DNA from: Phapecoctavirus DIJ07P2
Sequence record: OZ035771.1
DNA length: 64,000 nt
Reading direction: 5' to 3' (one strand)
Under the pieces are notes generated by a model. The model saw nothing but the letters and a program-made list of their open reading frames with translations, searched no databases and was not told the origin of the DNA. Both the position numbers and the translations under genes were made by a program. Below, piece after piece: positions 12,698 through 53,148 of this stretch; positions within the stretch are counted from its first letter, which is position 1; the number at the start of each line of letters is the position of its first letter.

Positions 12698-13491
12698 TAT
12701 TCCTCCTTTCTAATGTTCTCCAGAACCCACTGAAGTTCTTTTAAACTTAAACTTCTTACTCCCGCAGTTTTACTAGCTTCAGTTTTAAGTAACGGGTAAG
12801 CCTCAATGATACGTGTTTTAAGATCAGAAGTCAAGGCTTTTAAAAAATAGGTAGATGCTTCAGATAAAGAATCTTCTTCTGTTAGCACTTTACCTGCGCT
12901 TGCTCCGGCTCTCCTAACGGCTATGTCGTAGTCTTTGCTGTTACCTAATACGAACAGTCGATTCTCTCCTAAAACAACGGGAGAACGCTTCTGGCTGCGT
13001 TTAATCCATATTTGGAATACACAAGGAACATCCCAAGGTTCTCCATGAAGAATAAAAGATCCTTTGGGACACTCTTCTTCGTGAAGAAGATGCATATAAG
13101 GATTTAGTTTGTGTGCAAAAAAGATTTTTTGAAATGTGCGAGGTAAGATAAAACAAATACCACCTTCGTTATCCAGCATTTCAGCGCAATGGTTAAAGAA
13201 CTTAATGGCAAGACTAGCGTTTTTTCCGAATGGAGGATTACCAACAAAAGCCGTTACACTACCAACAGACTCAACAGATTGAGCTAAAAAATCTGCCTCA
13301 ATACAATCTTCAAACTTAGGGTCAATATCAAAAGAAGTTATGTTTTTAAAGCAAGAAGAGAAAGCTCCTTCTCCCGCAGATGGTTCTACGTAGTTAGCTT
13401 CCTCTCCAAAAATTTCTTTGATCTTATCACATAAGAACCCCGCATAAGCGGGGTTAGTGTAATATTGATCAAGTGTGTTCAACTTGCTCAA
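12697..13491 (-). CDS. DNA N6-adenine methyltransferase
   Basis: motif I-like EPSAGEGAF and motif IV NPPF; TTG start 13491 with SD aaggagg. Confidence 0.55.
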   Translation of the reverse strand: MSKLNTLDQYYTNPAYAGFLCDKIKEIFGEEANYVEPSAGEGAFSSCFKNITSFDIDPKFEDCIEADFLAQSVESVGSVTAFVGNPPFGKNASLAIKFFNHCAEMLDNEGGICFILPRTFQKIFFAHKLNPYMHLLHEEECPKGSFILHGEPWDVPCVFQIWIKRSQKRSPVVLGENRLFVLGNSKDYDIAVRRAGASAGKVLTEEDSLSEASTYFLKALTSDLKTRIIEAYPLLKTEASKTAGVRSLSLKELQWVLENIRKEE

Positions 13492-16094: not shown

Positions 16095-17038
16095 TATAGC
16101 TCCTCAAATAAAAGTCTACGACGCTCATTCAACACATCAATGTGATAATGAGTCCTGACATACTTAGCTAATGCTAATCCTTTCTCCATGCAAACATCGG
16201 GAGCACTTAATAAGTATTCCGTAATATCTTTCCACTCGGAAGGTGTTTCAGCAAAGAATAACAAATCTTTAAACTCTTGTGTATGATAATTCTCACGAGG
16301 AGAGCAGATTAAAGGTAAACCCTTAGCACCTGCCTCAAGAATTTTAAGATTGCTTTTTGCATTATTAAACACGTTATCGACCAATGGTGCAAGACTGATT
16401 TGATGACCATCGTAAGATTCCATGTAGTTGGCATATGGTCTTACACCTTCATAAACACTAGTTGGTGCTACATTTTCTCTAATTACAGACCATTCACGAC
16501 TACTTAAAACTTCAGAATCCCTACGAAAACCACATATTGTAAGATCTTTACCAAAATCGGGCAAGATAGCCAAATCTTGTTTATGTGTTTCACTTCCAGC
16601 CCAGACTAATGGAGTTTTGGAGTAGCGATCACGGGTCAACACAAATTGACCTTCATCATAAGGAAGTCCATTAGGGATTATGTGCACATTATCATTGTAT
16701 TGTGAAAGTTCAACTTGCAAGGCAGGTGTCGTAGTTGTAACAAGATCACTGTGCTCTAAAAACCATTTTAAATGTTCACGAATACCTGATTCAAAAATAC
16801 CTTCTAACATGTGTCCTTTTGGAATAACTAAAGAGTCATCCAAATCCATAACCATTTTAAAGCCCAGGTTTTTAAGGGCTAAAAAGCCCTCTTTACCTTT
16901 TGTTGGCACTCCGTTAAAAACGAAAACGTTGTGTTTAGGTTGTGAAGAGAACTGCCTTGAGTAAGGCAGCACTACCCTATGGAAATCGCAGACACTATAA
17001 TTGATTCCGTTATGATTGTCAAGAATTATTTGTCCCAT
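16094..17038 (-). CDS. glycosyltransferase, GT-B fold (GT4-like), paralogue 1
   Basis: C-terminal motif NLKILEAGAKGLPLICS (E-x7-E-like); clear paralogy with next gene. Confidence 0.45.
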   Translation of the reverse strand: MGQIILDNHNGINYSVCDFHRVVLPYSRQFSSQPKHNVFVFNGVPTKGKEGFLALKNLGFKMVMDLDDSLVIPKGHMLEGIFESGIREHLKWFLEHSDLVTTTTPALQVELSQYNDNVHIIPNGLPYDEGQFVLTRDRYSKTPLVWAGSETHKQDLAILPDFGKDLTICGFRRDSEVLSSREWSVIRENVAPTSVYEGVRPYANYMESYDGHQISLAPLVDNVFNNAKSNLKILEAGAKGLPLICSPRENYHTQEFKDLLFFAETPSEWKDITEYLLSAPDVCMEKGLALAKYVRTHYHIDVLNERRRLLFEEL

Positions 17039-20562: not shown

Positions 20563-21165
20563 TTATGGACATTCATACCATTCTTTTTTACCACCGAAGG
20601 CCATCACCACATCACAAATATCCAGACCAGCTTTACCTACACCATATGCTTTCAGCTTCCATTCCCCATCTTCACGAACCAAGGAAGCCACGTGGCAGAT
20701 TGTGTTACCAGCTACTTCAGGAGCCAGGAAGTCAAAATCCAGAATTTCCACATTACGCTCGGAGTCGAAGATTTTAAGCATACCTTCAGAAGCATGACCA
20801 AAACGTTTCAGACCTGTATCATCATCAATGGTCAGAACAAAGGCAATCTCTTGTGCATCAGGAGAGATTTTAGCCAGAGTAATATCAATCTGCTCCATGC
20901 TGCCAGTCCCATCACGAACATCGTCACCAGCGAAGGTAGAACGTTCAGGATCAAACTTGTTAGCATAGCAAACCAGATGACGTGCGGACAGCATTTCAGG
21001 ATTGCCAGCGGCATTATGACGACAAACCAGTGCACTTACATCCAGATCCAGTTTAGAATCAGATTTCCAAGAGAATTCCAGGCGCAGTTCTTTCAGAGCC
21101 GGAGCAACTTTCTTCAGGGAAATTTTTTCGCTAGAGCCTTTTTTCAGGGAAATTTTATCAGTCAT
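20563..21165 (-). CDS. TerD-family protein
   Basis: 200 aa; N-terminal ISLKKGSSEKISLKK and length typical of TerD/general stress 16U family. Confidence 0.65.
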   Translation of the reverse strand: MTDKISLKKGSSEKISLKKVAPALKELRLEFSWKSDSKLDLDVSALVCRHNAAGNPEMLSARHLVCYANKFDPERSTFAGDDVRDGTGSMEQIDITLAKISPDAQEIAFVLTIDDDTGLKRFGHASEGMLKIFDSERNVEILDFDFLAPEVAGNTICHVASLVREDGEWKLKAYGVGKAGLDICDVVMAFGGKKEWYECP

Positions 21166-21180
21166 CTTTTGTCTCCTCTA

Positions 21181-21450
21181 TTATTTAAGTGTAATACCAG
21201 TTACAGTCAATTCTACTTCCAAAAGCTTAGATGTGTTTTGGATTGATACTAATTGTGCATGATGGTTTAGTTCTACAGCAGAATAATCATTTTCCCCATC
21301 ATCTACTTTTAAATAAACAATGATTTCACTAAGGTCTAAACCATTTTCGTCAAATGCATTTTCATAGACGAAAGTATCTCCTACATCCAAATCTTTAATG
21401 GTAAGGCATCGTTTATTTACTTTTTGCTCATCAATTTCGAAGTTTAACAC
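21181..21450 (-). CDS. hypothetical protein (89 aa), paralogue of 22472..22750
   Basis: shared block DLDVGDTFVYENAFDENGLD versus DLGIGDTFMYYDAYEDAGLD; SD aggagg. Confidence 0.45.
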   Translation of the reverse strand: MLNFEIDEQKVNKRCLTIKDLDVGDTFVYENAFDENGLDLSEIIVYLKVDDGENDYSAVELNHHAQLVSIQNTSKLLEVELTVTGITLK

Positions 21451-21679
21451 TTCTTCCTCCTAATGTTATCTCCGGTTTGTATATACGAAGAATTATAGCA
21501 TTTTCATTTTCTTTGTCAACCCATTCTTCATAATCGGGCCATACATGAATCTCTACTCTACTTACAATATCTTCCATTCGCACAGTCCCAATGAAATACT
21601 CTTTGAGACTGCGCATAATGAAAGCTTCTCTCTCGCGCCAATAATTTTCTACGACTTGAGAGGCAAGCTCGTCGATCAT
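21431..21679 (-). CDS. hypothetical protein (82 aa)
   Basis: track ORF; overlaps neighbours at both ends. Confidence 0.4.
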   Translation of the reverse strand: MIDELASQVVENYWREREAFIMRSLKEYFIGTVRMEDIVSRVEIHVWPDYEEWVDKENENAIILRIYKPEITLGGRSVKLRN

Positions 21680-22470
21680 TTTTTAGCACCTACTTTAACA
21701 ACCCACTCTCCGAACTCTTCAGATAAGAGTTTGTCATAAAGCTCTGAATCTGTCAAGTCTAAATCTTTAATGCCAATAAAACCAACATTATCATAAGCAT
21801 TTGCCAGTTCTTTCAGGAAGCCAAACTTCTCATTACCAACGCCAACCATGAACCAATAAATAGGTTTATTCTTATTCTCTTCAATAAGACGACGAACAGC
21901 ACTAGGATCACCATTCTCACCATCCGTCTGGAAGAATACAACACCAGGGGTAACGTCAGCACCTGGTTCAGATACAGCTACAACTTTTTCACGCTCTACA
22001 GACACTGTTTCAGTTTTACCAAGCAGACGATTAAAGAAGCCTTTCTTTGGAGCCTCCTCTTGTACCACTTGTTTAGTGGTAATATATTTGGTAACAGTGC
22101 CAAAATACTCATCGTAGATATCTGCCATTACAGGGGCGTAATTTGTTCCACCTCCGATACGAACATTGCGCATACATTTACCAACATAGTCATCGTAAAC
22201 GTCTGCTGTTGCTGGAGTAAGCTCTTGGGAACTCGTATTGAAGGCCCACATATCAATTTGTTGATTATCGTCGAACAGCATACCAAAAGGAAGCAGTTTA
22301 CCTACAAAATCACTCACTACCCCACTAGAATATAGGCCATGCATACTACCAGAAATATCTAGAGCACATGCTACACGAAGAACAATCTTACCTTCATTCA
22401 GGTTCTTATTCTTTTTCAGAGAGAAAGCAAGGTTTTCTTGACGTTTTTTCAGGCTGATTTTCTCGGACAT
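21676..22470 (-). CDS. von Willebrand factor A (vWA) domain protein, TerY-like
   Basis: MIDAS-type DxSxS motif ALDISGSMHG; N-terminus MSEKISLKK resembles the adjacent TerD-like start. Confidence 0.55.
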   Translation of the reverse strand: MSEKISLKKRQENLAFSLKKNKNLNEGKIVLRVACALDISGSMHGLYSSGVVSDFVGKLLPFGMLFDDNQQIDMWAFNTSSQELTPATADVYDDYVGKCMRNVRIGGGTNYAPVMADIYDEYFGTVTKYITTKQVVQEEAPKKGFFNRLLGKTETVSVEREKVVAVSEPGADVTPGVVFFQTDGENGDPSAVRRLIEENKNKPIYWFMVGVGNEKFGFLKELANAYDNVGFIGIKDLDLTDSELYDKLLSEEFGEWVVKVGAKK

Positions 22471-22471
22471 A

Positions 22472-22750
22472 TTATTTCTCCTTCTTAAGTGTAATATTGG
22501 TAACTTCTAAATCTACTTCCACCATATTTGTATCTGGCGGGATGCAATGAGTATAGCCTCGTTGTGCTAGTGATCCATTAATACAGATCGCACTGTTTGT
22601 GGAATTTTTAATGAACACCAAGTTACGGTAGGTATCCAACCCTGCGTCTTCATAGGCATCATAATACATGAATGTGTCCCCTATGCCAAGGTCTTCGAAA
22701 GCAATAGGTAAATCCTGACACTTTTCTTCTTGAATATTGAATCTAAACAC
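22472..22750 (-). CDS. hypothetical protein (92 aa), paralogue of 21181..21450
   Basis: GTG 22750 with SD gaggagg matches the paralogue's N-terminus; track start 22816 would overlap upstream gene by 74 nt. Confidence 0.4.
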   Translation of the reverse strand: MFRFNIQEEKCQDLPIAFEDLGIGDTFMYYDAYEDAGLDTYRNLVFIKNSTNSAICINGSLAQRGYTHCIPPDTNMVEVDLEVTNITLKKEK

Positions 22751-23306
22751 GCATACCTCCTCTACCAATTTTGAAGCCCAAATCGTAAGCTTCCTTAGTG
22801 ATCTTTTGTAACTCACTTATAGAAAGTGTTACAAGAGGATCATCTTCTTCAATTTCCATCTTGTCATCTTCTGTTTCAATGAGAGTATTATGCACTTTGT
22901 GATAAGGGTTGTCAACACGTTTAAACTTATTCTTTTCTGTGCTGAAAAAACAATCTGGATCTTCTTCACCATCACCCCAACCTTGGTTAGGATCTCCGTC
23001 AGATTGTTCTGTAGGGATTTCACCTGTAAAGTACTTTTCCAGCACCATAGCGATACCGTCTCTTGGATTTGAGGAATGCATTAAATCACAAACCTTACCC
23101 CAATCCATAGCCCATTCGAACCGTTCACGAACGCCATTTTCATCCTCCTTTCCAGAGAAAACACAACCATAACTATCATAGTTGCCATACATCTCTTCAA
23201 TAACAACACCATCCTTCAAAAGAAAGAGATAGCAAGGTGATCCGTCGAAAGAAGTAGAAAGGGCAGCTTTGCCCGATTCCTTACACAAAAAGCTAAAACA
23301 ACCCAT
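22743..23306 (-). CDS. hypothetical protein (187 aa), acidic
   Basis: track ORF; no recognisable motif. Confidence 0.45.
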   Translation of the reverse strand: MGCFSFLCKESGKAALSTSFDGSPCYLFLLKDGVVIEEMYGNYDSYGCVFSGKEDENGVRERFEWAMDWGKVCDLMHSSNPRDGIAMVLEKYFTGEIPTEQSDGDPNQGWGDGEEDPDCFFSTEKNKFKRVDNPYHKVHNTLIETEDDKMEIEEDDPLVTLSISELQKITKEAYDLGFKIGRGGMRV

Positions 23307-23503
23307 TACAAACCCTCCTTCAGATTATCAAGAGCTATAGTGGTTTCACAAAAGTCTCCATACGCTTTATGATGTTCTAGAAAAGCTTCAGGTCCACCCC
23401 AATCATTATCTTGTGTATTCCAACCATCAATAAAAGCATCTTCAATGATTGTGATCAGTTCCTGTCGAGTCAACGTAATGGTATCAGGTTTTGGATTATG
23501 CAT
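23306..23503 (-). CDS. hypothetical protein (65 aa)
   Basis: track ORF; start overlaps upstream stop. Confidence 0.35.
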   Translation of the reverse strand: MHNPKPDTITLTRQELITIIEDAFIDGWNTQDNDWGGPEAFLEHHKAYGDFCETTIALDNLKEGL

Positions 23504-23669
23504 CTTCTTCCTCCTCTAAAATACGAAACCCATAGTTACAATAGTCCTGAAAGGTTTCGTGTGCAAGATCTTCTATATCCTCTTGAGACATATCATCTTC
23601 AATTTCGATATCCACAACCTCATTGCATCCACACCAAGCAGTTTCAATATTCACTCGTAAAGTTTTCAT
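23496..23669 (-). CDS. small acidic protein (57 aa)
   Basis: ATG 23669 in ATGA overlap with upstream stop, SD gaggaag; below track cut-off. Confidence 0.3.
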   Translation of the reverse strand: MKTLRVNIETAWCGCNEVVDIEIEDDMSQEDIEDLAHETFQDYCNYGFRILEEEEDA

Positions 23670-23872
23670 TCTTCTTCCTCATTAAATTCCACATCAGAAA
23701 TAACTTTAAATCTACCAAAGTTACGACAACCTTCATAGATATATCCATCACGACAAGCTGCAAAAATATCTGGAGTTTGTAGCTGGGTCATTGGGGCAAA
23801 GCGTTTCTCTTCGTCATAACGAACACCTATTTCTCCAGCTTGTTCGTCAAGCATGTATACACGGATTCTCAT
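23666..23872 (-). CDS. hypothetical protein (68 aa)
   Basis: track ORF; acidic C-terminus. Confidence 0.35.
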   Translation of the reverse strand: MRIRVYMLDEQAGEIGVRYDEEKRFAPMTQLQTPDIFAACRDGYIYEGCRNFGRFKVISDVEFNEEEE

Positions 23873-24981
23873 TTACCCAACCCCTTCTTAACAGCGTCAA
23901 CCATCCCATCTTCGAGAGATTGAACTTCATTGATATAATCAACACGGGCAGCACGGGCTTCCGTATTGATGCGGTTAGTTTCTTCCAACATCTTAACCAA
24001 GTTTTCCTGATCGTGACGCAGAGTTTCAATATCCAACACTTGACGGTTAGCCAGTGCTGCTGCTTCGATCTGATTCTGTGTGGCAAGATCGCTACCCAGT
24101 TTAATTGCCAGGTTAAATTCATCAAGAACGTTATTCTGTGTCTCTGCGGCTTTCATTTGACGTAAGCTCTCAATATACATTGAGAAGTTAGCAGAGTAAG
24201 CAGGAATAACATTATTTACTATGTTACGCGCAGATCGCATTAAGCTTGCAGAAACTTTTTGCATACCTTGCACACGTGGTCCCATTTGGACACACAGTAG
24301 GCGCAATGCTTTTAAATCCGCAATACGAATCTCCAGAAGATCCAAAGTATCTCGGATCGCTTGTCGCTGTTCTACCGCATCTTCTGGAAGAGCAGCCAAA
24401 GCTTGTTCTTCTTTTTCATAGGTTGCTGTTAGAAGCTGCATATCTCGGTTCAAACTTGCAGCATATTGTCCAATAGCTTGATGTAGCTTTTCAAGATATA
24501 CCAAGGAATCTTCTTCTTTGCGAATATCCATTTGAAGGTTCTTTACCAACTCTTCAATACGGTTATTAACATTATCAAACTCCCCAAACAGGTCTTCTTT
24601 CATACCCATAACTTTTTTAATGAGTTTAGTAATACCTTTGCTTTGTTTAATAGAGTTTGGATCAAGTTGTTTTGCCTGTTTAATCAAAGCTGTGAGTCGT
24701 TCACTCATCTGATCGCCTTGATTACTACGTTGATGTTTTAATACCTCGGCATTCAAGGAACGCAAGGTTGTTCCTGCCTCTGCCCCGATCTCTTCGATCT
24801 CTTGTCGTGTCATAGAAGGTAAAACTGGAACTTCTTGCGGTGCCGCTGGTGCATAAACAGGACTGGCATCTAACACGCTTGGAGCGAATACAGATTTACT
24901 TGCATCTGTTGTTGCAGCAAATACGCTCATTTCAGGTTTCTTCTGACAGCCAGTAGCTGCTTTTAAAAATGGACTTGTCAT
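23869..24981 (-). CDS. TelA-like (toxic anion resistance family) coiled-coil protein
   Basis: 370 aa, predominantly helical/charged, size and genomic context (next to TerD, vWA, TerC) fit TelA/KlaA family; weak by sequence alone. Confidence 0.4.
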   Translation of the reverse strand: MTSPFLKAATGCQKKPEMSVFAATTDASKSVFAPSVLDASPVYAPAAPQEVPVLPSMTRQEIEEIGAEAGTTLRSLNAEVLKHQRSNQGDQMSERLTALIKQAKQLDPNSIKQSKGITKLIKKVMGMKEDLFGEFDNVNNRIEELVKNLQMDIRKEEDSLVYLEKLHQAIGQYAASLNRDMQLLTATYEKEEQALAALPEDAVEQRQAIRDTLDLLEIRIADLKALRLLCVQMGPRVQGMQKVSASLMRSARNIVNNVIPAYSANFSMYIESLRQMKAAETQNNVLDEFNLAIKLGSDLATQNQIEAAALANRQVLDIETLRHDQENLVKMLEETNRINTEARAARVDYINEVQSLEDGMVDAVKKGLGK

Positions 24982-25568
24982 TCTTCATTCTCCTCTTCTG
25001 CATCTCTTATATATGGTGAAACACCGTACTCTTTAGCTACTTTAACCCAATCGTCCCATTTATACAACCATAATTTTCCTTCGGTCCCTTCTTTATCTGA
25101 TTTCAACCACATATTAGGTTGCTTACCTGGGTACATGCGATTAGGTTTACGATTATAACCTCTAACACATCTTGTCGCAAACCTATCTACCAGAACAAGA
25201 ACATATTTATATTCGTGGTTCAACGGCTCTTTGGAAGTGGCTTTAGGATTAGCCCCTAACTCTGCTGCCAGTTTTTGCCAATGAGCACCGTGTCTACTAA
25301 ACTTACCCATACAACCATCAATAGCATGAGCAATTTCGTGCTTCATTGTATCCACGATCATATCTCTTGTAGAGTTCTTATGCAAGTGCCAATTTACAAC
25401 AACAATTTTATCTCGGTAATTGCACCAACCAAAAGAGTTATTCACTTTGTTTCTAACGCAAGCTTTATATCCTGCTTCACGTAACATGTTGTAGTAAACA
25501 GGAAAATCTTCTTTTATTTCCTGCATCACTTCCCACCACAAGAGTTGCAAGTCTCTCTCGGTATGCAT
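24978..25568 (-). CDS. SprT-like zinc metallopeptidase-domain protein
   Basis: HExxH motif in MKHEIAHAIDG followed by GAHWQKLAAELG. Confidence 0.4.
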   Translation of the reverse strand: MHTERDLQLLWWEVMQEIKEDFPVYYNMLREAGYKACVRNKVNNSFGWCNYRDKIVVVNWHLHKNSTRDMIVDTMKHEIAHAIDGCMGKFSRHGAHWQKLAAELGANPKATSKEPLNHEYKYVLVLVDRFATRCVRGYNRKPNRMYPGKQPNMWLKSDKEGTEGKLWLYKWDDWVKVAKEYGVSPYIRDAEEENEE

Positions 25569-25571
25569 AAC

Positions 25572-26165
25572 TTACACCTTAAAAGTGAAATGCGTGGTCG
25601 TGGCTTCAAAATCAGGACCAGATAAACGTGCACTGAAATCTGAAATATTTGTAATTAAAAAGCTTTTATGCATACCTAACACAGCCACGCTTTCAATATC
25701 TTCTACTAACATTTCAATCATGTTAGAAACATGGCTGAACGTAGGGTTTTGTTTTTTGATGGTGTAGAAAGAAAGATTCCCACCTGCTGTATAAGATACC
25801 TCTTCAAAATCTTTAATCGTATATTGTGTGCCATCAGTAAAGAAAATGGTAGCTTTATTAGTAGCACGTTTCTTGTTTTTTGGTCCTTTTTTACGTTTAC
25901 TGCGAGTAGGCAAACCGTTTGGGAACACCATAGCTACAAATTCTTCAGGAGAAACCTCCTTACCGAAATCATAACCATAAGAAACAGCGTCTATAAACTC
26001 GTCGTCTTCATTTTTAAAATAATGAAAATAGGGCCAATTTGAGAGATTATCGAGCATCTTATGCTCATCCACAGCAGAGAACGTATCCCTCAAAGCACGT
26101 GTGATTTGCAAAGCATTAGGCAAACTTTTAACACCTGTAATGGAAGTACGAATAGAAATTGTCAT
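25572..26165 (-). CDS. hypothetical protein (197 aa)
   Basis: track ORF; basic patch RSKRKKGPKNKKR. Confidence 0.45.
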   Translation of the reverse strand: MTISIRTSITGVKSLPNALQITRALRDTFSAVDEHKMLDNLSNWPYFHYFKNEDDEFIDAVSYGYDFGKEVSPEEFVAMVFPNGLPTRSKRKKGPKNKKRATNKATIFFTDGTQYTIKDFEEVSYTAGGNLSFYTIKKQNPTFSHVSNMIEMLVEDIESVAVLGMHKSFLITNISDFSARLSGPDFEATTTHFTFKV

Positions 26166-26179
26166 TGTTTTTCTCCTTA

Positions 26180-26617
26180 TTAACGTCGCTTGCTACGAGA
26201 TGAACTCTTTTTACTTAAAGGGCTATTGTAAGATTTACGAGTTGTATAGCTACTATTTGTTTTAAAAGTTTGTCTCGGCTTTTCATAAGTTTTTGTCTCT
26301 TGTTTAGGCTTACCATAAAAATTAGTTTTCGGTTTAGGTGTATTATAATGCTTATTAATAATCGTTCTGTTATCGTTATAATCCCCGCCACTACGATTAC
26401 TACCACCGCTCATCATATGCCCTAACAACATACCTGTAGCAAACTCACCAACACCGCTACTACTAGAACCGCCACCATTGTTGATAATAGTTGTATCTCC
26501 ATCAGATCCTTGTTGGGCGTATTGTTGAGGAGGTTGTTGGTATTGTGCAGGATTTGTTTCATCCTCGCAAGCTGTTAAAAAGATACAACCAATTAAAATC
26601 AGGGCTAGTTTTTTCAT
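26180..26617 (-). CDS. lipoprotein with glycine-zipper and Gly/Ser-rich region
   Basis: start moved to ATG 26617 (SD gaggaaag); signal peptide plus lipobox MKKLALILIGCIFLTAC; GVGEFATGMLLGHMMSGG. Confidence 0.5.
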   Translation of the reverse strand: MKKLALILIGCIFLTACEDETNPAQYQQPPQQYAQQGSDGDTTIINNGGGSSSSGVGEFATGMLLGHMMSGGSNRSGGDYNDNRTIINKHYNTPKPKTNFYGKPKQETKTYEKPRQTFKTNSSYTTRKSYNSPLSKKSSSRSKRR

Positions 26618-26804
26618 ATTTGCTTTCCTCATTTTGACTATTAATACATCTGTGTTTGAAATCTCCAGAGAAGCAATAAATTTGCTCTCCATCTCGGTAT
26701 AAACTCACTTTACTGCCGTTGATTACGCTTGTCAATACAAAAATTACAACAAACAACCCTATTGCAAAACAGATATTTTCAAACACAACCAACAAGTATT
26801 TCAT
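26559..26804 (-). CDS. small membrane protein candidate (81 aa)
   Basis: track ORF; hydrophobic N-terminus; ATGA overlap with upstream stop; 3' end overlaps lipoprotein start by about 59 nt, so uncertain. Confidence 0.3.
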   Translation of the reverse strand: MKYLLVVFENICFAIGLFVVIFVLTSVINGSKVSLYRDGEQIYCFSGDFKHRCINSQNEESKYEKTSPDFNWLYLFNSLRG

Positions 26805-27151
26805 TTTAAAAATACCTCATCATCAGTTTCATTATCCCAGAAGAACAAATCCCAACCATTTGGATCGTTCCATTTGGCTGCTGGAGAAGTCCATATTTGC
26901 TCGATATCAATATTCAAAACTTCACCGTTTCGTTTTGAAACAGCTTTAGTTAATTCCCAACGGGATACAGGCTCCACTTCCCCTGAACCACTCCCACAAC
27001 AAGCTACCACATTAGGAGGCAAATTAATTGGATCTTTGGTCACGATCATAACGCTTACCCCAGGGTAAACTTTTGAAAGATAATCTAAAACGTAATCCAC
27101 ATCACCAGATAAATCCCAAACAAGTTCTTGAATTTCATCAAAATTATTCAT
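26801..27151 (-). CDS. hypothetical protein (116 aa)
   Basis: track ORF; acidic, Trp-rich. Confidence 0.45.
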   Translation of the reverse strand: MNNFDEIQELVWDLSGDVDYVLDYLSKVYPGVSVMIVTKDPINLPPNVVACCGSGSGEVEPVSRWELTKAVSKRNGEVLNIDIEQIWTSPAAKWNDPNGWDLFFWDNETDDEVFLK

Positions 27152-27193
27152 AAGTCTCTCCTATAAAATAGCCTCCCGAAGGAGGCTCATCTA

Positions 27194-28168
27194 TTAAACA
27201 GCAGCTTCTTCTTTTTCAGGGAAGATAAAGCTTGCAATAACACCAAGAGCTAATGTGCCTAGAACAATCATCAGACTTACGTTAGGGGAAATATCATGCG
27301 GGAGGAATGACCACTTGGCATGAAGTGTTTCACCGAACGGGTGATACATAAGTTTAGCACCGACAAACACCAGAACCACAGCAACAGCTTTCTCTAAGTG
27401 AACCAGATATTTCACAGCTACACTTAACACAAAGAAAAGTGCACGTAAACCAAGAACAGCCATCAACATTGCAGAATAAACTAGCAGAGGTTCTTGTGTC
27501 ACACCGATCACAGCCGGAACTGAATCAAAAGAGAAGACAATATCTGTAAGCTCAATTACAAACACACAAAGAAGAGCAGGAGTTGCATATTTAATACCAT
27601 TCTTAATGGTAATGAACTTTTCACCATCCAGTGCATTGTGCACAGGCAGAACTTTACCTACTAAACGAACAGCCCAATGCTTAGAGTAATCAATATCCTC
27701 TTCTTCGTCACCACCTTTGATGATAGCCACGGCAGACCAAGCTACAATCAAACCGAACAACACTTGGACCGACCAATGAAGGTTAAACAAAGCGGTCCCT
27801 GCTGCAACAAAAATACCTCGGAAGACAATGGCTCCTGCAATCCCCCAAAGTAGAATCTTATGTTGGAGATGTGTGCTCTTAATTCCAAAGCTTGCAAAAA
27901 TTGCCATGAACACCATTAGGTTATCTACAGAAAGACTCTTTTCCAACACATAGCCACTTAGGAAAAGCGCGGCAAACTCTTTACCATGTTCTACCCAAAT
28001 GAATGCGTAATACCCTAAAGCTAAAGCAATCCAAAAAACAGACCAAAGCAAAGCAGATTTAATTCCAATTTCTTTATTCTCTTTATGACCAAAGAAATCG
28101 ATACCAATAGACAATGCTAAAATACCAACTAAAACAACTACATCAATAATTGGGAAACCGAGTTGCAT
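27194..28168 (-). CDS. TerC-family integral membrane protein
   Basis: multiple TM helices; characteristic SLSVDNLMVF and FSFDSVPAV motifs; ATG 28168 with SD gagaggag. Confidence 0.6.
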   Translation of the reverse strand: MQLGFPIIDVVVLVGILALSIGIDFFGHKENKEIGIKSALLWSVFWIALALGYYAFIWVEHGKEFAALFLSGYVLEKSLSVDNLMVFMAIFASFGIKSTHLQHKILLWGIAGAIVFRGIFVAAGTALFNLHWSVQVLFGLIVAWSAVAIIKGGDEEEDIDYSKHWAVRLVGKVLPVHNALDGEKFITIKNGIKYATPALLCVFVIELTDIVFSFDSVPAVIGVTQEPLLVYSAMLMAVLGLRALFFVLSVAVKYLVHLEKAVAVVLVFVGAKLMYHPFGETLHAKWSFLPHDISPNVSLMIVLGTLALGVIASFIFPEKEEAAV

Positions 28169-28185
28169 TCTTTTCTCCTCTCTTT

Positions 28186-28244
28186 GCGGGGAACTATTCC
28201 CCGCTTCATGTGATATATCTTACTCTTTTTAAGAACTATGTCAA
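28186..28244 (-). promoter_or_regulatory. sigma70-like promoter plus 5' GC stem-loop cassette (same design as early-gene array) upstream of TerC gene
   Basis: minus strand TTGACA-N16-TAAGAT then atatcacatgaa and stem-loop gcggggaatagttccccgc, SD, ATG 28168. Confidence 0.5.
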
Positions 28245-28247
28245 CAC

Positions 28248-28469
28248 TTATTTTGTTGAATGAGAGGAAAAGATTCCTCGTAATACCGCCAAAATAAACG
28301 AAACACAAACCACGGTCCAGAAGGTTACTGGGACAGTGATATCTGCATGACCCATAACTTCAGCAACATAGTTGTAAGCCAGCAACAGTAACCAAGCTGG
28401 AATCAAACTAAGCATAAAAGCAATAACAAAAAAGCTTACCACTGCAACAATACCTGCAAAAACACCCAT
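28248..28469 (-). CDS. small membrane protein (73 aa)
   Basis: track ORF; two hydrophobic helices. Confidence 0.45.
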   Translation of the reverse strand: MGVFAGIVAVVSFFVIAFMLSLIPAWLLLLAYNYVAEVMGHADITVPVTFWTVVCVSFILAVLRGIFSSHSTK

Positions 28470-28481
28470 ACTAATCTCCTC

Positions 28482-28955
28482 TTAAAGTTTATAAATAGTC
28501 ACATCGTGACCTGTTTTTACTAAAGTTTCTTCAATCATCACTTGGATGATAGCCCAATTACCTCCGGCATGTCCCGCTCCAATCATAGGTAAACCGATCT
28601 TACATTTTTGGTCACGGAGAAGCAAATCATTAGCCATAGCTATTAGTGCATCGTAAAGTGCATCATAGTCCAACTGACGACCTTTACTATTGTATCCATA
28701 ACGATACTGTCCATAAAGGTTGTATACCATAGGGTTAGGATAATCTTCTGGTTCCCCTAAACTAAAAGAACCAAGCTTTTTCTGGTTTCCTGCTCCTGTA
28801 GCTAAATCTGCTTCGTATGCATATGGAAACGCATATTTTATTTGTGGGGCAATACCTGCCCCCATATTACACATACAGTTGCAACAATGAGCAATAACAG
28901 TTACTTCACCTGCTTTAGCGGCATCAATAAGATTACCTGTTTTCATTTTAAGCAT
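28482..28955 (-). CDS. macro domain-like protein
   Basis: start moved to ATG 28955 (SD taaggag) to avoid 92-nt overlap; IAHCCNCMCNMGAGIA and IGLPMIGAGHAGG resemble macro-domain glycine-rich blocks. Confidence 0.4.
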   Translation of the reverse strand: MLKMKTGNLIDAAKAGEVTVIAHCCNCMCNMGAGIAPQIKYAFPYAYEADLATGAGNQKKLGSFSLGEPEDYPNPMVYNLYGQYRYGYNSKGRQLDYDALYDALIAMANDLLLRDQKCKIGLPMIGAGHAGGNWAIIQVMIEETLVKTGHDVTIYKL

Positions 28956-28968
28956 TTTTAGCTCCTTA

Positions 28969-29796
28969 TTACAGAATGTGTTGTTTTGTGTAACGATCCA
29001 AGAATTCAAAGTTTTCAGCATACTTTGAAATTCGGTTGTAACCTTCTCCCAAGCATCCAAAGAAAAGTTGCTCTACATAGTAGTGTGGCAATTGACTAAG
29101 AATGATTTTGAAGTCTTCATGATTTTGGCCCATAAGATATTTAATAGGACGAACAAGACACTGTGCATCACGTTCTTCATTAATCATTTTAACAAACGCT
29201 TCTGGTGTATTAATGTAGTTAAAATTCAGTTTAGCTTCGGTATCTGCTTGATTACCTTCATATTTTGCAAAATACAGGAAGTAAACATCATTTTTAACTT
29301 GATTTTCATCAAGGATCTCAATCAGTTTGTCTTCATGCGTTCCAGTGATATTTACATCATCAATGAATACAAGCTTCTTATCACCCCAGAATTCTTTGTT
29401 ACAGTAGAATGTATCCCCATCAATAAGTTTCTTACGACTAGCTTTATCCAAGAAGCCATAATCGTTAATATAGCTAACTTTACGATGAATAATATCCAGT
29501 TCTGCTGAACGACCTTGATTATATTGTGATTGCAACATGTTAAAGTAATTAATAAAATGATCTGTCATCATTGTTGCAGCATTATGCACATGGTTGTAAG
29601 GAGAAGGAATGATAACAAATTGTTCCCCAATATGTTTCATTGCCACTTGAGCAAAAAACTGAAGTGCCAATTCTTTACCCATACGACGCGCGGCTTGGTT
29701 ACTACCAAATTTCAATTTTGAATAATCTTGGATATCAAAAGTAGCAGTTTCCAGGTCATCAAATTTATTTGCAAAAATTTGAGTTTGATTACGCAT
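28969..29796 (-). CDS. phosphoribosyltransferase (PRTase)-like protein
   Basis: PRPP-binding-type motif KLVFIDDVNITGTHED. Confidence 0.4.
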   Translation of the reverse strand: MRNQTQIFANKFDDLETATFDIQDYSKLKFGSNQAARRMGKELALQFFAQVAMKHIGEQFVIIPSPYNHVHNAATMMTDHFINYFNMLQSQYNQGRSAELDIIHRKVSYINDYGFLDKASRKKLIDGDTFYCNKEFWGDKKLVFIDDVNITGTHEDKLIEILDENQVKNDVYFLYFAKYEGNQADTEAKLNFNYINTPEAFVKMINEERDAQCLVRPIKYLMGQNHEDFKIILSQLPHYYVEQLFFGCLGEGYNRISKYAENFEFLDRYTKQHIL

Positions 29797-30445
29797 TTAC
29801 AATTTCTCCTCTTTTAAGTTTCTCTAGTAAGTCGTTAGGGTTCTTAATATGACAGAAGTTAAATCCTAAGTCAACACATTTTCCATCATATTCTTCACTA
29901 TCGCCTACGTGCAATACTTCGTGCCCTAACAGAGGGATCGGAGAATATGTGAGCGTGCGAGCAAAGAATCGCGGATCTGGTTTACAAAGTAAAGCTTCAT
30001 CCGAGAAATGGGTGAACTCAAAACAATTCCAACTATCAAACTTACAAGCACGACGCAGGATATCCCCTGATATAAAGTTGGTATTGCTCTTAATACTCAA
30101 ATCATAACGTCCCGAAAGATACAGCAAGTACATCGGCAGATCCACGGCTACGTGTGGTGGAAACTTAAGGAACCACTGTTCACACTCGAAACGAAGCTTT
30201 GCAGACTTCCAAGGTGTTATCCCAAGTTCAGAACCAAGTCTTTCCCAGGCGTATGCTGCACACTCGGCTTTGCCTTGAAGTGCTGCATTATCCAGTTCCT
30301 TTTTGATCTTCTTATAAGCTGCTCTTGCTTCCACTTCCGTAATATCTCCATATTTTGCGATAGTCCAGGCTCGCATGTCTGCGTAATTGGAGTTTGCTGT
30401 GATCAGTGTGTTCCATACATCAAAAGAGATATGTTTAATAGTCAT
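29789..30445 (-). CDS. HAD-superfamily hydrolase (dehalogenase-like subfamily)
   Basis: motif I ISFDVWNTLI, motif III LCKPDP, motif IV HVGDSEEYD. Confidence 0.55.
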   Translation of the reverse strand: MTIKHISFDVWNTLITANSNYADMRAWTIAKYGDITEVEARAAYKKIKKELDNAALQGKAECAAYAWERLGSELGITPWKSAKLRFECEQWFLKFPPHVAVDLPMYLLYLSGRYDLSIKSNTNFISGDILRRACKFDSWNCFEFTHFSDEALLCKPDPRFFARTLTYSPIPLLGHEVLHVGDSEEYDGKCVDLGFNFCHIKNPNDLLEKLKRGEIVNA

Positions 30446-41452: not shown

Positions 41453-41650
41453 TTACACTTTTTCCCAAGTACCAAAAGCACAGGAAGGGTAGATTCCAAC
41501 TTGAGGGTTTCCGTTATCATCTTTGAAAGTAAAACTGTTGTTGTCTTTATCAAGAACTGTAGAATAAATCTTACCAACAGTAACGCAGTTGGAAGCTTGA
41601 CCCAGTTCAGTGAGAGTAAGACATTTCATTTTCTGTTTCTTTGTAGCCAT
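41453..41650 (-). CDS. hypothetical protein (65 aa)
   Basis: track ORF. Confidence 0.4.
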   Translation of the reverse strand: MATKKQKMKCLTLTELGQASNCVTVGKIYSTVLDKDNNSFTFKDDNGNPQVGIYPSCAFGTWEKV

Positions 41651-44077: not shown

Positions 44078-44105
44078 ATCTTAACAGGACTAAAAAGCAT
44101 GTCAA
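44078..44105 (-). promoter_or_regulatory. sigma70-like promoter (TTGACA-N16-TAAGAT) for leftward gene block
   Basis: plus-strand tgtcaa 44100-44105 and atctta 44078-44083; same -10 flavour as early array. Confidence 0.45.
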
Positions 44106-48015: not shown

Positions 48016-48042
48016 AAACCCGCTTCGGCGGGTTTTGTTATA
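48016..48042 (+). terminator. rho-independent terminator
   Basis: aaacccgcttcggcgggttt hairpin plus tgttat. Confidence 0.55.
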
Positions 48043-50167: not shown

Positions 50168-50222
50168 TATTTTAACTTTTTTCATTTTTAGAACAAAGGT
50201 GTCACTTTGTAGCACAGAAATA

Positions 50223-50260
50223 AGGCTCCTACAGCACCGTAGAGAGCCTATTATTTTGTC
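50223..50260 (+). terminator. rho-independent terminator after rightward early block
   Basis: aggctcctacagcaccgtagagagcct interrupted hairpin followed by attattttgtc. Confidence 0.5.
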
Positions 50261-50390
50261 CTATACAAACCCTTGTCTTTTTCAGTTTGCATCACTAGGA
50301 TTCGATCTGAGTGGGTTCCTGAAGGTCTGCCAATAAGATTAAAGGTTATCTCAAATTCCCACTACCTATTATCTCAAAAATCCCTCAAAT

Positions 50391-50596
50391 TATTTAAACT
50401 TTTTAAGAATTTACAAAAGTGAAAGTTGAAAACCAAAATTTAAAGTTTAGGAAAATTATCTTAAAATGTCAGATACAAAACAAAACTCAAAAGTCAAGGA
50501 AAATTTTAAAAATTTTGCGCGCCCACAGTATTTAAAGTTTTTTTGCTTTTACAAAAATGAAAGTACAAAAGCAAAATTTAAAGTTTACAAAAATTT
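50391..50596. repeat. AT-rich direct repeats (two ~65-bp copies plus a degenerate middle copy)
   Basis: tatttaaaCtttttaagaatttacaaaaGtgaaagt...caaaatttaaagttta versus tatttaaaGtttttttgcttttacaaaaAtgaaagt...caaaatttaaagttta. Confidence 0.6.
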
Positions 50597-50607
50597 ATGC
50601 AGATGGG

Positions 50608-50721
50608 AATGAGAAGAGTTCTCATATGGAAATGCAAATGATAATGATTCGCATTTAGGTTTATAAATGAGATTGATTCTTATTTGATAAGGTAAATGAT
50701 AATCATTCTCATTTAGAGAAT
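50608..50721. promoter_or_regulatory. cluster of palindromic TTCTCAT/ATGAGAA-type boxes resembling Fur boxes
   Basis: atgagaaGAGttctcat (perfect IR); aaatgataatgattcgcattt; aaatgataatcattctcatttagagaatg (cattctc-N5-gagaatg). Confidence 0.45.
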
Positions 50722-50972
50722 GACGCGCAGGGGCGGTGTTTGTCTCGCGCTCCCGTGTCCCCTCGCCATGTAATAAGAATAACAGATCCAGCCAGGAAAG
50801 CAAGCGATTATTTTATCTTTACATTTCTTTACAAATATATAGCGCCCAGCCTACCGGCGATCAACCTTCCAACCAGCGCCCTGGTATGTTAGCCCCGCCT
50901 TTACGCCGTGGGGGTGGCGCTTCCTCTTCTGTATGTAAAACAGTATAAGCCCGATCCCTGGGCTTGTCAAGA

Positions 50973-51239
50973 TTATTTTTTGTTTTCTTGCCAGGTTAGG
51001 ACACCTAGCCAAAAATGAATATCACCTTTTCCCCAATGTGGTATATTGCTTTCTTTCCCACCTTCACGCGCCCAGGTAAAACCGCCCGTGTAACTTTGTA
51101 ATTGATAACTATCCTCGACCTTATAATCTGATAGGTTGAGAACTGTTTCAACCTTTAAGCCCGTTGCGCTTGCTACCTGGTGCACCGTGCCGCCTTGCCA
51201 GCCCAATGAGTGCATAAGGTGTAATGTAGTATTTGTCAT
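50973..51239 (-). CDS. hypothetical protein (88 aa), isolated leftward gene
   Basis: track ORF; only weak SD; sits inside otherwise non-coding GC-rich island, so uncertain. Confidence 0.3.
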   Translation of the reverse strand: MTNTTLHLMHSLGWQGGTVHQVASATGLKVETVLNLSDYKVEDSYQLQSYTGGFTWAREGGKESNIPHWGKGDIHFWLGVLTWQENKK

Positions 51240-51348
51240 GGTGTCGCCCTTTCTTTGTTGTGCGCCCTGGTTGGCGCGGTAGAAAGATGATAGCCCTTTC
51301 CTTTATATATAGCAAGCAAAAAGAAAATAAAAAAGATTGAAAAAGTGA

Positions 51349-51406
51349 TTGACGTTCGCCAGGTGGCGGCATAATATTTACCACGTAGGGCGGCAATGGT
51401 GCCGCT
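51349..51406 (+). promoter_or_regulatory. early promoter + 5' stem-loop cassette, unit 1
   Basis: TTGACG, N16, ATAATA; ccacgtaggg then stem-loop ggcggcaATGGtgccgct; ATG 51427. Confidence 0.55.
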
Positions 51407-51426
51407 CATTATTTGGAATTAAGATC

Positions 51427-51624
51427 ATGGCAACATTGCACATTGTGGCGAAAGCTGGACAAATCAACGTAGTAGTAAACGGTTTTACTGAGTTCAGTCA
51501 TCCCCAGGATGATCATGAAACGGTTTTATCTTTCATTGATTCACTGTTAGAAATGGGAGTCATTACAGAAGACCAGCACGCTACAAAATGCAAACGCGTT
51601 AATCAGATTGCAGGAATAGAATAA
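51427..51624 (+). CDS. small early protein (65 aa)
   Basis: first ATG downstream of cassette 1; track start 51349 lies in promoter. Confidence 0.5.
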   Translation: MATLHIVAKAGQINVVVNGFTEFSHPQDDHETVLSFIDSLLEMGVITEDQHATKCKRVNQIAGIE

Positions 51625-51630
51625 AAAGTA

Positions 51631-51690
51631 TTGACAACAACCAACAACCTGATAAGATGTATCACATAAGGCGGGAAATGGTTTCCCGCT
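51631..51690 (+). promoter_or_regulatory. early promoter + 5' stem-loop cassette, unit 2
   Basis: TTGACA, N16, TAAGAT; stem-loop ggcgggaaaTGGtttcccgc; SD gagag; ATG 51714. Confidence 0.6.
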
Positions 51691-51713
51691 CACAACAGAA
51701 GAGAGAAATCATC

Positions 51714-51986
51714 ATGGCATCATATAGCGCAACAATGATCGTAGCTGGTACCACTGGTAAACCTATGAGCGGTGGCGGATCTTTCGCTAATATTAATATT
51801 GATGGGCGTTTATCCCTGGACGCAGCGATCACCGTGGCGCGGGAAACATTTAAGAAAGAATGTGATTTCAACAAGCAAGATTATTTAGGTTTTGCTATTG
51901 AAAAAACGGCGCGTTTTGTTGATTATAAAAGTCCGAAAATGGTTGATACTACACTAAAAGCGCAAGATGTAGCCTTTTTGCTTTAA
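51714..51986 (+). CDS. small early protein (90 aa)
   Basis: ATG 51714 with SD; track start 51657 lies in -10 region. Confidence 0.5.
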   Translation: MASYSATMIVAGTTGKPMSGGGSFANINIDGRLSLDAAITVARETFKKECDFNKQDYLGFAIEKTARFVDYKSPKMVDTTLKAQDVAFLL

Positions 51987-51988
51987 GG

Positions 51989-52046
51989 CTTGACATTAAC
52001 GAATAATTTGTTAATATGTTACATAAAGCGGGAACTATTCCCGCTA
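51989..52046 (+). promoter_or_regulatory. early promoter + 5' stem-loop cassette, unit 3
   Basis: TTGACA, N16, TAATAT; stem-loop agcgggaaCTAttcccgct; ATG 52063. Confidence 0.6.
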
Positions 52047-52062
52047 TTTGTAAGGTGGTAGA

Positions 52063-52320
52063 ATGTTTTACATCAAATTAAAAGGTCACGTGATCGCGTT
52101 CAAGGATAACGCTTTTTACAGATTAGCAAAATATGCGTTAATACATCCCCATTATGTTTATATAAGGGGGCGTGATGAAATAAATATCTTTGATCAAACA
52201 ACATGCGAGAACATCGAGATCCGCAAGGTTGGCGTACGTGACTATCGTACATCTTTCTACCCTTGCAAGGATTCAGCAAGTCTTTTTAAAGTATGCCAAT
52301 TGTTGAAAAAAGGTGGTTAA
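52063..52320 (+). CDS. small early protein (85 aa)
   Basis: track ORF; SD aaggtgg. Confidence 0.5.
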   Translation: MFYIKLKGHVIAFKDNAFYRLAKYALIHPHYVYIRGRDEINIFDQTTCENIEIRKVGVRDYRTSFYPCKDSASLFKVCQLLKKGG

Positions 52321-52321
52321 T

Positions 52322-52879: not shown

Positions 52880-52934
52880 CATATCGCCGCCACTGGCATA
52901 ATATTTACCACGTAGGGCGGCAATGGTGCCGCTC
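52876..52934 (+). promoter_or_regulatory. early promoter + 5' stem-loop cassette, unit 4
   Basis: TTGACA, N16, ATAATA; stem-loop gggcggcaATGGtgccgct; ATG 52962. Confidence 0.55.
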
Positions 52935-52961
52935 ATAGTGAAATTATGCAAGAGGCTTACA

Positions 52962-53057
52962 ATGATTAATAAAGGAAATAGCTTGACGGTTGGAACGATT
53001 AACGCTATCATTCTCGCCGTTCCATTTTGGGTTGTAGTAGCGGCTATTATTTTCTAA
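52962..53057 (+). CDS. hydrophobic micro-protein (31 aa)
   Basis: only ORF between cassettes 4 and 5; SD agagg; MINKGNSLTVGTINAIILAVPFWVVVAAIIF. Confidence 0.35.
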   Translation: MINKGNSLTVGTINAIILAVPFWVVVAAIIF

Positions 53058-53066
53058 AAAATATTC

Positions 53067-53127: not shown

Positions 53128-53148
53128 AAAACAAAAAAGGGTAACACA

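Follow-up and report, generated by a model that had tools for sequence, protein, structure and literature searches.

The locus described here lies in a 64,000-nucleotide stretch of the genome of Phapecoctavirus DIJ07P2 (sequence record OZ035771.1; the whole stretch is hereafter called the window) and comprises a gene for a TerC/Alx-family integral membrane protein together with a promoter, a leader, a hairpin and a Shine-Dalgarno (SD) sequence directly upstream of it (Table 1). The encoded protein matched Pfam TerC (PF03741) at 3e-40 with 138 bits against a cutoff of 27.8, and TIGR03718 (R_switched_Alx) with 319 bits against a cutoff of 246. Bases 27000-29500 of the window are 97% identical to phAPEC8-like Escherichia myoviruses such as ESCO13 and phAPEC8_ev052, the lineage being the genus Phapecoctavirus of the subfamily Stephanstirmvirinae, and the window is collinear with ~89-150 kb of ESCO13 plus the start of the ESCO13 record. 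Replication and nucleotide-metabolism genes occupy a leftward block at ~8-44 kb, and a rightward block begins at ~44.2 kb. A Ter-type gene set with TerD, a vWA TerF-like protein and TelA is part of the leftward block, where an SprT-like protein, TerC, a macro-domain protein, a ComF-like PRTase and a HAD hydrolase are also encoded.

The first-pass annotation had described a cassette of promoter, leader and stem-loop immediately upstream of the TerC-family gene, and all of its elements were recovered on the minus strand at the positions listed in Table 1, with the SD and the start codon of the gene following directly. The -35 hexamer was invariant among 15 aligned copies from the window and reads TTGACA or TTGACT in TerC orthologues; the exact string TTGACA-N16-TAAGAT has six occurrences in the window, where 0.00 are expected. 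The leader of this copy, in short form atatcacatgaa, runs into a hairpin with the arms GCGGGGAA-TAG-TTCCCCGC in DNA and GCGGGGAA-UAG-UUCCCCGC in RNA, for which a folding energy of -14.6 kcal/mol was calculated (z = -2.8 for the whole leader). The hairpin does not sequester the SD, which stays open in the predicted fold, and the entire leader measures only ~40 nt with this single hairpin. Upstream, the stop codon of a 73-aa ORF ends 3 nt before the -35 hexamer. A short upstream ORF beginning at an ATG in the TerC leader (CACATGAA) was rejected, as it is not conserved in phi92.

Table 1 Features of the TerC locus, its surroundings and the cassette array (positions in the window)
Feature	Position	Strand	Remarks
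A-rich tract ttcaacaaaataagtg	28262-28245	-	5' of -35; contains the stop of the upstream ORF
Upstream 73-aa ORF	28248-28469	-	stop TAA 28250-28248, then gtg, then -35
-35 hexamer TTGACA	28244-28239	-	invariant among 15 aligned window copies
Spacer between -35 and -10, 16 nt		-	3' end AAAAAGAG, shared with array copies a54243 and a54982
-10 hexamer TAAGAT	28222-28217	-	
Leader / initial transcribed region ATATCACATGAA	28216-28205	-	array consensus GTATCACATAGG
5' hairpin GCGGGGAAtagTTCCCCGC	28204-28186	-	perfect 8 bp, 3-nt loop
Purine-rich spacer AAAGAGAGGAGAAAAGA	28185-28169	-	between hairpin and ATG
Shine-Dalgarno AGGAG	28179-28175	-	6 nt 5' of ATG
TerC/Alx-family integral membrane protein gene	27194-28168	-	324 aa; ATG at 28168; Pfam TerC and TIGR03718
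3' hairpin AGCCUCC-UUCG-GGAGGCU, then AUUUUAU	27187-27163 (stem-loop 27187-27170)	-	from terminator scan
TerD	20563-21165		leftward block
vWA TerF-like protein	21676-22470		leftward block
TelA	23869-24981		leftward block
Array of ~18 homologous cassettes	51349-59010	+	each heads a small ORF, function not assigned
Promoter-hairpin-ORF module	~57772-58128		present in window only, compared with ESCO13
Orphan hairpin	58874-58893		a 2.6-kb ESCO13-only block starts right after it

The homologous cassettes of the array share one order of elements. Each unit begins with an A-rich tract that holds the stop codon of the previous gene, followed by TTGACA, a spacer of 16-17 nt and a TAAnnT-type -10 hexamer that often carries the extended -10 TG; the 3' part consists of a leader close to GTATCACATAGG, a hairpin of the GCGG...CCGC type, a spacer rich in CA and in purines, the SD and the ATG. 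The hairpins of all copies fold with -12 to -18 kcal/mol, and an SD and an ATG come after every one of them. Proteins of 60-190 aa are encoded by the array ORFs, and all those tested (10/10) were assigned to PHROG families without a known function. The genome of phi92 carries direct terminal repeats, and its homologous array lies directly at the right genome end. Judging from the sigma-70 promoters, the small genes of unknown function and the terminal position in phi92, the array genes would be early genes, for which the early regions of T4, the pre-early regions of T5 and the host-takeover region of SPO1 are analogues. The region is also plastic. The indels that separate the window from ESCO13 in the array are bounded by cassette elements, as exemplified by the window-only module and the ESCO13-only block of Table 1, and hairpin subtypes have been swapped between orthologous array genes of the window and phi92.

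It had been claimed that the TerC copy is the only cassette of this type outside the array, and this was borne out by a hairpin and promoter census, by covariance-model searches and by the complete genome of ESCO13. In the window census, in which compact G/C-rich hairpins were combined with promoter and leader tests, only the array and the TerC site qualified. The covariance model from which the TerC score was taken (R2) was seeded from array copies of three phages and contained no TerC sequence; it replaced a model R1 that had TerC in its seed and was thus circular for the TerC score. Seeds were restricted to an equal-geometry subset, and hairpins were trimmed by hand because automatic trimming with RNAfold gave spurious outer pairs, while MAFFT alignments of the cassettes were out of structural register, their gaps having fallen outside the loops, at the ends, and were excluded from modelling. 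With R2, the TerC copy reached 38.3 bits (E = 4e-8), a score within the span of genuine array members. In a covariance-model search with filters off, the best match in the window besides the array and TerC had an E value of ~2. Over the complete 149.8-kb ESCO13 genome, R2 recovered 19 array sites (139.08-148.48 kb) and the TerC site (117,192-117,222), with no match in the remaining ~140 kb, and a descriptor census of ESCO13 likewise returned the array and TerC only. Two look-alikes in the window, 16948-17022(-) and 13424-13455(+), are internal to long ORFs, had E > 1 and were rejected. On these sequence grounds, the TerC copy is a member of the paralogous family that makes up the array.

We then compared the TerC locus across relatives. 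TerC homologues are present in 174 phage records, and within Stephanstirmvirinae protein identity stands at ~99% for Phapecoctavirus, 88% for Klebsiella relatives, 73% for the tuntematon group and 71% for phi92/Justusliebigvirus. The cassette was found at TerC in tuntematon, phiWec190, phAPEC8, phi92, a Klebsiella phage and IMG/VR relatives (TerC 71-88% identical), the IMG/VR search with the TerC protein having yielded four loci, a number adequate for covariation and not a broad survey. At every tier of TerC identity, a sigma-70 promoter and a hairpin stand at the same place 5' of the gene, and the locus is syntenic in all relatives and stable across the subfamily, indicating that the cassette predates the split between Phapecoctavirus and Justusliebigvirus. 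BLAST located cassettes of this type 492 times across 142 phage records; practically all belong to Stephanstirmvirinae, and weak matches occur in rV5/PVP-SE1-like phages.

Six variants of the TerC stem were collected: GCGGGGAA/TTCCCCGC, GCGGGGAG/TTCCCCGC, GCGGAGGA/TCCTCCGC, AGAGGGGG/CTCCCTCT, AGAGGGAG/CTCCCTCT and AGGGAGAG/CTCTCCCT. All 42 of the 42 cells in this comparison are paired, and five of the seven pairs have changed on both sides; none of 500 shuffles paired as well, and registers slid along the alignment paired at 52-69%. This covariation indicates that the secondary structure is under selection, and together with the conserved promoter and hairpin the compensatory changes show that the TerC cassette is functional and not a chance copy. 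The stem of the Klebsiella lineage (AGAGGGGG/CUCCCUCU) is entirely different, so that the array model misses it, with structure and position nevertheless kept. We also tested the TerC hairpin for sequence co-evolution with the array hairpins of the same phage and found none: the array hairpins of phi92 and of the Klebsiella phage keep the GCGG...CCGC types, and the TerC stem of each has drifted.

Among ~53 distinct cassette sequences, 98% of positions in the stems were paired, the inner three pairs covary and the outer GCGG/CCGC pairs are invariant, a figure to be read with the bias towards structure of an alignment that was fitted to the covariance model. Arms range from 6 to 10 bp and loops from 3 to 6 nt, and the loop sequences include UAG, UGG, UUG, AUAGG, CAC, CUA, ACAAG and AAUGGU. 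Neither the outer stem nor the leader of the array copies varies between lineages (52/52 rows), the leader reading YACRTAGG in ~50 distinct copies from diverged phages; the TerC copies of Phapecoctavirus and phi92 retain these leader and outer-stem features of the array.

The position of the hairpin relative to the promoter is fixed, with 9-12 nt between the end of the -10 hexamer and the first paired base in 31/31 cassettes measured. Transcription of TerC is predicted to start at A28211 or A28209, on the basis of the usual distance of 6-8 nt after the -10 hexamer and the pyrimidine-purine rule. With initiation 7-8 nt past the -10 hexamer, at the conserved C-A steps of 'CACAT', the fixed spacing would let the hairpin begin at about +2 to +6 and make it 5'-terminal in the transcript. 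Most G.U wobbles are found on the sense strand, which folds better than its complement in 12 copies, worse in 4 and equally in 2, a count that lends moderate support since many copies are paralogous duplicates; one G.U pair occurs among the stems of TerC orthologues. The hairpin probably acts as RNA rather than as double-stranded DNA. No U-tract follows the 5' hairpin, either at TerC, where AAAGAGAGG comes next, or in the array, where TCACAACAG and similar sequences do, and the 5' hairpin is absent from a terminator scan that does report the 3' hairpin of TerC with its tail ATTTTAT. The missing U-tract argues against an intrinsic (Rho-independent) terminator.

Given this arrangement, we lean towards reading the TerC cassette as an autonomous sigma-70 unit, with a 5' hairpin that serves to stabilise the mRNA or to insulate it. 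Host sigma-70 RNA polymerase would initiate at the near-consensus promoter about 7-8 nt after the -10 hexamer, and the nascent transcript would fold almost immediately into a stable GC-rich hairpin, followed by an open spacer, the SD and the start codon. The most likely job of a hairpin at the RNA terminus would be to shield that end from RppH and from 5'-end-dependent RNase E; it may in addition insulate the ribosome-binding site from upstream sequence context, and it may set the 5' boundary of TerC mRNA that comes from read-through transcripts. In combination, the 5' hairpin and the UUCG hairpin at the 3' side would give a discrete, long-lived TerC message, made as soon as host polymerase meets the DNA. 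The 5'-terminal position, the lack of a U-tract, the open SD and the freedom of the TerC stem to change in sequence while remaining paired all fit such a protective role. RppH and RNase E require single-stranded 5' ends, which is the accepted reason for stabilisation by 5' structures (PMC3997798), and the 5' stem-loop stabilisers of the E. coli ompA and papA leaders (PMC3997798) resemble the element described here in having a stable hairpin a few nucleotides from the 5' end (predicted in our case) and an open ribosome-binding site after it, from which a block of RppH and of 5'-end-dependent RNase E would be expected by analogy. They differ in that the present hairpin belongs to a repeated promoter-linked module, not to a gene-specific leader, and in that its start is a predicted one.

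Three observations count against a stabilising function. A start at A28211 would leave 6-7 nt unpaired at the 5' end, and from work on ompA this is reportedly a length that may be too great for full protection. Other sigma-70 promoters of the genome work without this hairpin. Furthermore, the invariance of leader and outer stem in the array exceeds what a purely structural need would explain and could mean that there is a sequence-specific partner.

A partner of this kind is the core of the main rival to a stabilising hairpin, namely that leader and hairpin are the recognition site of a trans-acting phage early protein or of a host RNA-binding protein that coordinates an immediate-early regulon, with TerC as its only member outside the array. 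The modes open to such a factor would be translational or transcriptional shut-off, antitermination in the manner of lambda nut, or protection from nucleases. We regard this explanation as unlikely. It is favoured by the invariant YACRTAGG leader and GCGG/CCGC outer stem of the ~50 diverged array copies, by the retention of these features at TerC in Phapecoctavirus and phi92, and by the location of the element next to the promoter, as for a nut site. Against this, loop sequences vary freely. A lambda nut site (boxA/boxB) has a promoter-proximal hairpin with a conserved loop that an N-like antiterminator binds; the hairpin here is promoter-proximal too, with loops variable in sequence and size. 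The TerC stem of the Klebsiella lineage is wholly different while its structure and position are still kept, and the invariance within the array is explicable by cassette exchange or gene conversion, to which the swapped hairpin subtypes of the window and phi92 point. No candidate factor was identified either. The related proposal that the invariant leader and hairpin form an RNA tag through which a phage or host factor defines the immediate-early regulon, by timed shut-off, antitermination or protection, appears quite doubtful. If it were true, TerC/Alx would be the only member of the regulon with a recognisable function, kept there since before the split of Phapecoctavirus and Justusliebigvirus, and manipulation of membrane Mn2+ or pH homeostasis would belong to the first minutes of host takeover.

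Among elements already described, the closest in sequence architecture appear to be the promoter-early stem-loop (PeSL) cassettes of the T4-type phages RB49/phi1, T4/PST and KVP40/nt-1 (PMC2839356, PMC4122927). Common to both are an intergenic motif of ~100 bp, an AT-rich tract holding the stop codon of the upstream gene, an early promoter close to the sigma-70 consensus, a stem-loop rich in G/C, and an SD and ATG at the 3' end. As in the array here, PeSLs are present many times over, each heading a small gene without a known function, and the region is plastic, with indels and swaps bounded by the motif; a further trait of PeSLs is the formation of mini-circles through recombination between cassettes. 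The present cassettes resemble PeSLs in architecture and evolution without being strict members of the class. In PeSLs the stem-loop is placed 5' of the promoter, inside it or overlapping it, and a terminator function is ascribed to it (PMC2839356, PMC4122927), whereas the hairpin here is always transcribed, 9-12 nt past the -10 hexamer. Moreover, the host phages are Stephanstirmvirinae and not T4-like, a conserved leader sequence is present, and the clustered, indel-associated occurrence typical of PeSLs holds for the array and not for the TerC copy, which sits in a conserved syntenic module ahead of a gene of known family.

These parallels lead to a second alternative, in which the stem-loop attenuates or terminates upstream transcription and the ~100-bp motif is above all a stretch of homology by which modules are shuffled. 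The TerC copy would then be a relic of the insertion of a cassette together with its gene. Besides the matching architecture (PMC2839356, PMC4122927), the cassette boundaries of the array indels between the window and ESCO13 and the exchange of hairpin subtypes among orthologous array genes speak for it. We nevertheless consider it improbable: a hairpin that lies downstream of the promoter in 31/31 cassettes and has no U-tract is part of its own transcript and makes a poor terminator, the TerC locus is syntenic throughout the subfamily and bears no sign of ongoing shuffling, and a mere homology patch needs no compensatory evolution of the stem.

Still less can be said for a DNA element, that is, a phage-specific promoter or a palindromic operator for a dimeric repressor formed by the 20-mer of leader end and hairpin, which we judge very improbable: such 20-mers are labelled 'putative promoter determined with PHIRE' in JX561091 and the inverted repeat lies just past the sigma-70 start, a position from which a repressor could work as a roadblock, but PHIRE detects repeated 20-mers only and is no test of function, the ESCO13 annotation lists no phage RNA polymerase, arms (6-10 bp) and loops (3-6 nt) are variable in size, the half-site sequences at TerC are not conserved while their pairing is, and the G.U wobbles favour sense RNA. 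Hairpin promoters of the N4 type, in which a DNA hairpin upstream of the start serves a phage-encoded virion RNA polymerase, were likewise rejected, as the hairpin is downstream of a canonical sigma-70 promoter and the complete ESCO13 annotation contains no RNA polymerase gene.

Returning to the autonomous sigma-70 unit that we prefer, we examined how far TerC is separated from its surroundings. The UUCG hairpin begins 6 nt 3' of the TerC stop; phi92 (AAGCCCC/GGGGCUU) and phiWec190 have kept it, with compensatory changes. It probably closes the TerC unit as a weak intrinsic terminator, as a stabiliser of the 3' end, or as both. Lambdoid morons, as reportedly described by Juhala, Hendrix and colleagues in 2000, are said to be autonomous units of promoter, gene and terminator, and the TerC unit is similar in being one gene with its own promoter and 3' hairpin inside a longer co-directional transcription unit. 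It differs from them in being syntenic in all members of the subfamily instead of sporadic, in the weak T-tract of its 3' hairpin, and in belonging to a virulent phage, in which there is no lysogenic expression.

The first-pass annotation had suggested that TerC is expressed with the earliest genes and independently of upstream read-through. What is autonomous is the whole formed by promoter, 5' hairpin, gene and 3' hairpin. Independence from read-through is not supported: the upstream ORF ends 3 nt before the -35 hexamer, and neither inspection of the sequence nor the terminator scan revealed a terminator between that ORF and the TerC promoter, so that TerC should receive read-through transcripts besides its own. 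As to expression, the near-consensus array-type host promoter, and the conservation of promoter and hairpin in every Stephanstirmvirinae lineage examined, make it very likely that TerC is driven from a promoter of its own, and an early timing would be in keeping with this promoter type. The leftward module contains further consensus sigma-70 promoters, for instance at 44105(-) (of the exact TAAGAT type), 21519(-) and 13994(-), so that TerC would not be alone in being transcribed early.

Bacterial genes of the Alx subfamily are normally governed by a metal- and pH-sensing riboswitch leader, such as the Mn2+-responsive yybP-ykoY or the alkaline-pH-responsive alx leader. The phage cassette likewise makes up the 5' leader of a TerC gene from this subfamily, yet its ~40 nt with a single hairpin have no ligand-sensing architecture. 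No Rfam family was detected in the window at the gathering threshold, and neither yybP-ykoY nor another relevant Rfam family matched within 27100-28500 at E <= 10. The phage cassette hence appears to replace sensory control by promoter-driven control, and a constitutive, temporally controlled cassette would substitute for the bacterial Alx riboswitch. Within the Ter-type set of the leftward block, an array-type cassette is found at TerC only. TerC genes of other phage families (GAP52, P59, PhiImVa-1) have no such cassette; there the gene directly adjoins the preceding one and stands beside TerD/TerB genes, with no intergenic cassette in between.

Parts of the cassette have been annotated before. 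The phAPEC8 record JX561091 marks the TerC promoter as a 'putative host dependent promoter determined with MEME' and annotates array promoters too, and it tags 20-mers of the array such as GTAGGGCGGCAATGGTGCCG, which correspond to the leader end plus the 5' part of the hairpin, as PHIRE promoters. The two kinds of promoter are thus kept separate in that record, and the hairpin, its occurrence at TerC, the covariation and the uniqueness of TerC outside the array are absent from it. In the literature we found no description of the composite cassette, its hairpin, the covariation or the special status of TerC, and no transcriptome, start-site, time-course or half-life data for phages of this group. 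The practical consequence is modest, as the promoter had already been annotated and no new mechanism is demonstrated here. The findings carry the idea of PeSL-like composite cassettes from T4-type phages over to the phAPEC8/phi92 group and, in weaker traces, to rV5-like phages, in a version whose hairpin has a fixed position, predicted to be 5'-terminal in the RNA, and clear covariation. TerC/Alx is the one gene of known family under the control of such a cassette, in place of the bacterial riboswitch. This offers a lead to the unexplained role of Ter-type genes in phages (TerC, TerD, TelA, the TerF-like vWA protein, the PRTase and the HAD hydrolase). The cassette is also a defined element with which the maximising and timing of early expression in large virulent coliphages can be studied, and as a compact natural combination of promoter, putative 5' stabiliser and ribosome-binding site it could serve as a part in synthetic biology.

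If transcription started at A28209, the mRNA of the TerC-family membrane protein gene would open with an AUG, and this codon would begin an out-of-frame upstream ORF of 23 codons running across the leader hairpin (window 28140-28209, minus strand). In phi92, a relative that also carries TerC, the matching leader position reads CATAGA and holds no ATG; the upstream ORF is therefore probably fortuitous. At the other end of the gene, the TerC stop codon is directly followed by a conserved hairpin that has a UUCG tetraloop and a weak T-tract (27163-27187, minus strand). Its stem carries compensatory changes in phi92 and phiWec190, and the SD of the next gene follows directly after it. The leftward module around TerC (20563-30445, minus strand) holds a Ter-type gene set, listed in the table below, and TerC/TerD/TerB sets are likewise carried by the unrelated phage families of GAP52, P59 and PhiImVa-1.

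Genes of the Ter-type set, promoter-linked hairpins and PHIRE features
Feature	Record	Coordinates	Strand	Assignment
TerD	window	20563-21165	-	Ter-type gene set
vWA TerF-like protein	window	21676-22470	-	Ter-type gene set
TelA	window	23869-24981	-	Ter-type gene set
SprT-like	window	24978-25568	-	Ter-type gene set
TerC	window	between SprT-like and macro-domain genes	-	Ter-type gene set
Macro-domain protein	window	28482-29060	-	Ter-type gene set
ComF-like PRTase	window	28969-29796	-	Ter-type gene set
HAD hydrolase	window	29789-30445	-	Ter-type gene set
Promoter-hairpin sites	ESCO13	41560-41585, 48021-48039, 21339-21363	-	stable hairpin before SD
PHIRE features	JX561091	2713-2732, 3352-3371, 4241-4260, 5257-5276, 6111-6130, 6543-6562		leader end + hairpin 5' arm/loop

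The leftward module is headed at the divergent junction by an exact TTGACA-N16-TAAGAT promoter without a hairpin (44078-44105, minus strand). Further 12/12 or near-consensus sigma-70 promoters lacking the array leader were found at 21519, 13994, 41710 and 8869, all on the minus strand. In the leftward modules of the relative ESCO13, other sigma-70-like promoters are also followed, about 10-18 nt downstream, by stable hairpins, which are unrelated in sequence at the three sites tabulated; it may thus be common in this phage for transcripts to carry a hairpin at the 5' end.

Within the cassette array, one hairpin of the array type (58874-58893, plus strand) is an 'orphan' that has neither promoter nor leader; it lies just 3' of a stop codon, at the exact junction where ESCO13 has 2.6 kb of additional array genes (146150-148747), including two further cassettes. 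A full promoter-hairpin-ORF (92 aa)-stop module at 57772-58128 (plus strand) of the window is missing in ESCO13. The insertion point of this module lies between a stop codon and the RBS of the next gene, and the hairpin that it carries, GGGGCG-ACAAG-CGCCCC, differs from the typical array form. Just 5' of the array, a stretch of roughly 1 kb with few ORFs (about 50170-51350) contains several G/C-rich hairpins and a leftward-pointing consensus promoter (50970, TTGACA-N17-TATACT). Rfam gave no match in this stretch, for which the ESCO13 annotation has only one small CDS.

The features of phAPEC8 (JX561091) annotated as 'putative promoter determined with PHIRE' correspond to the cassette leader end with the hairpin 5' arm and loop, and are almost certainly not separate promoters. 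Four records of about 141-146 kb (MG065656, MG065639, MG065689 and MG065677) are labelled 'Campylobacter phage'. Their matches are to phi92-group (Justusliebigvirus) phages of E. coli, and these host labels look doubtful. TerC of MG065656 is 71.3% identical, equal to the figure for Justusliebigvirus records, and the other three gave cassette matches at 78-84% nucleotide identity.
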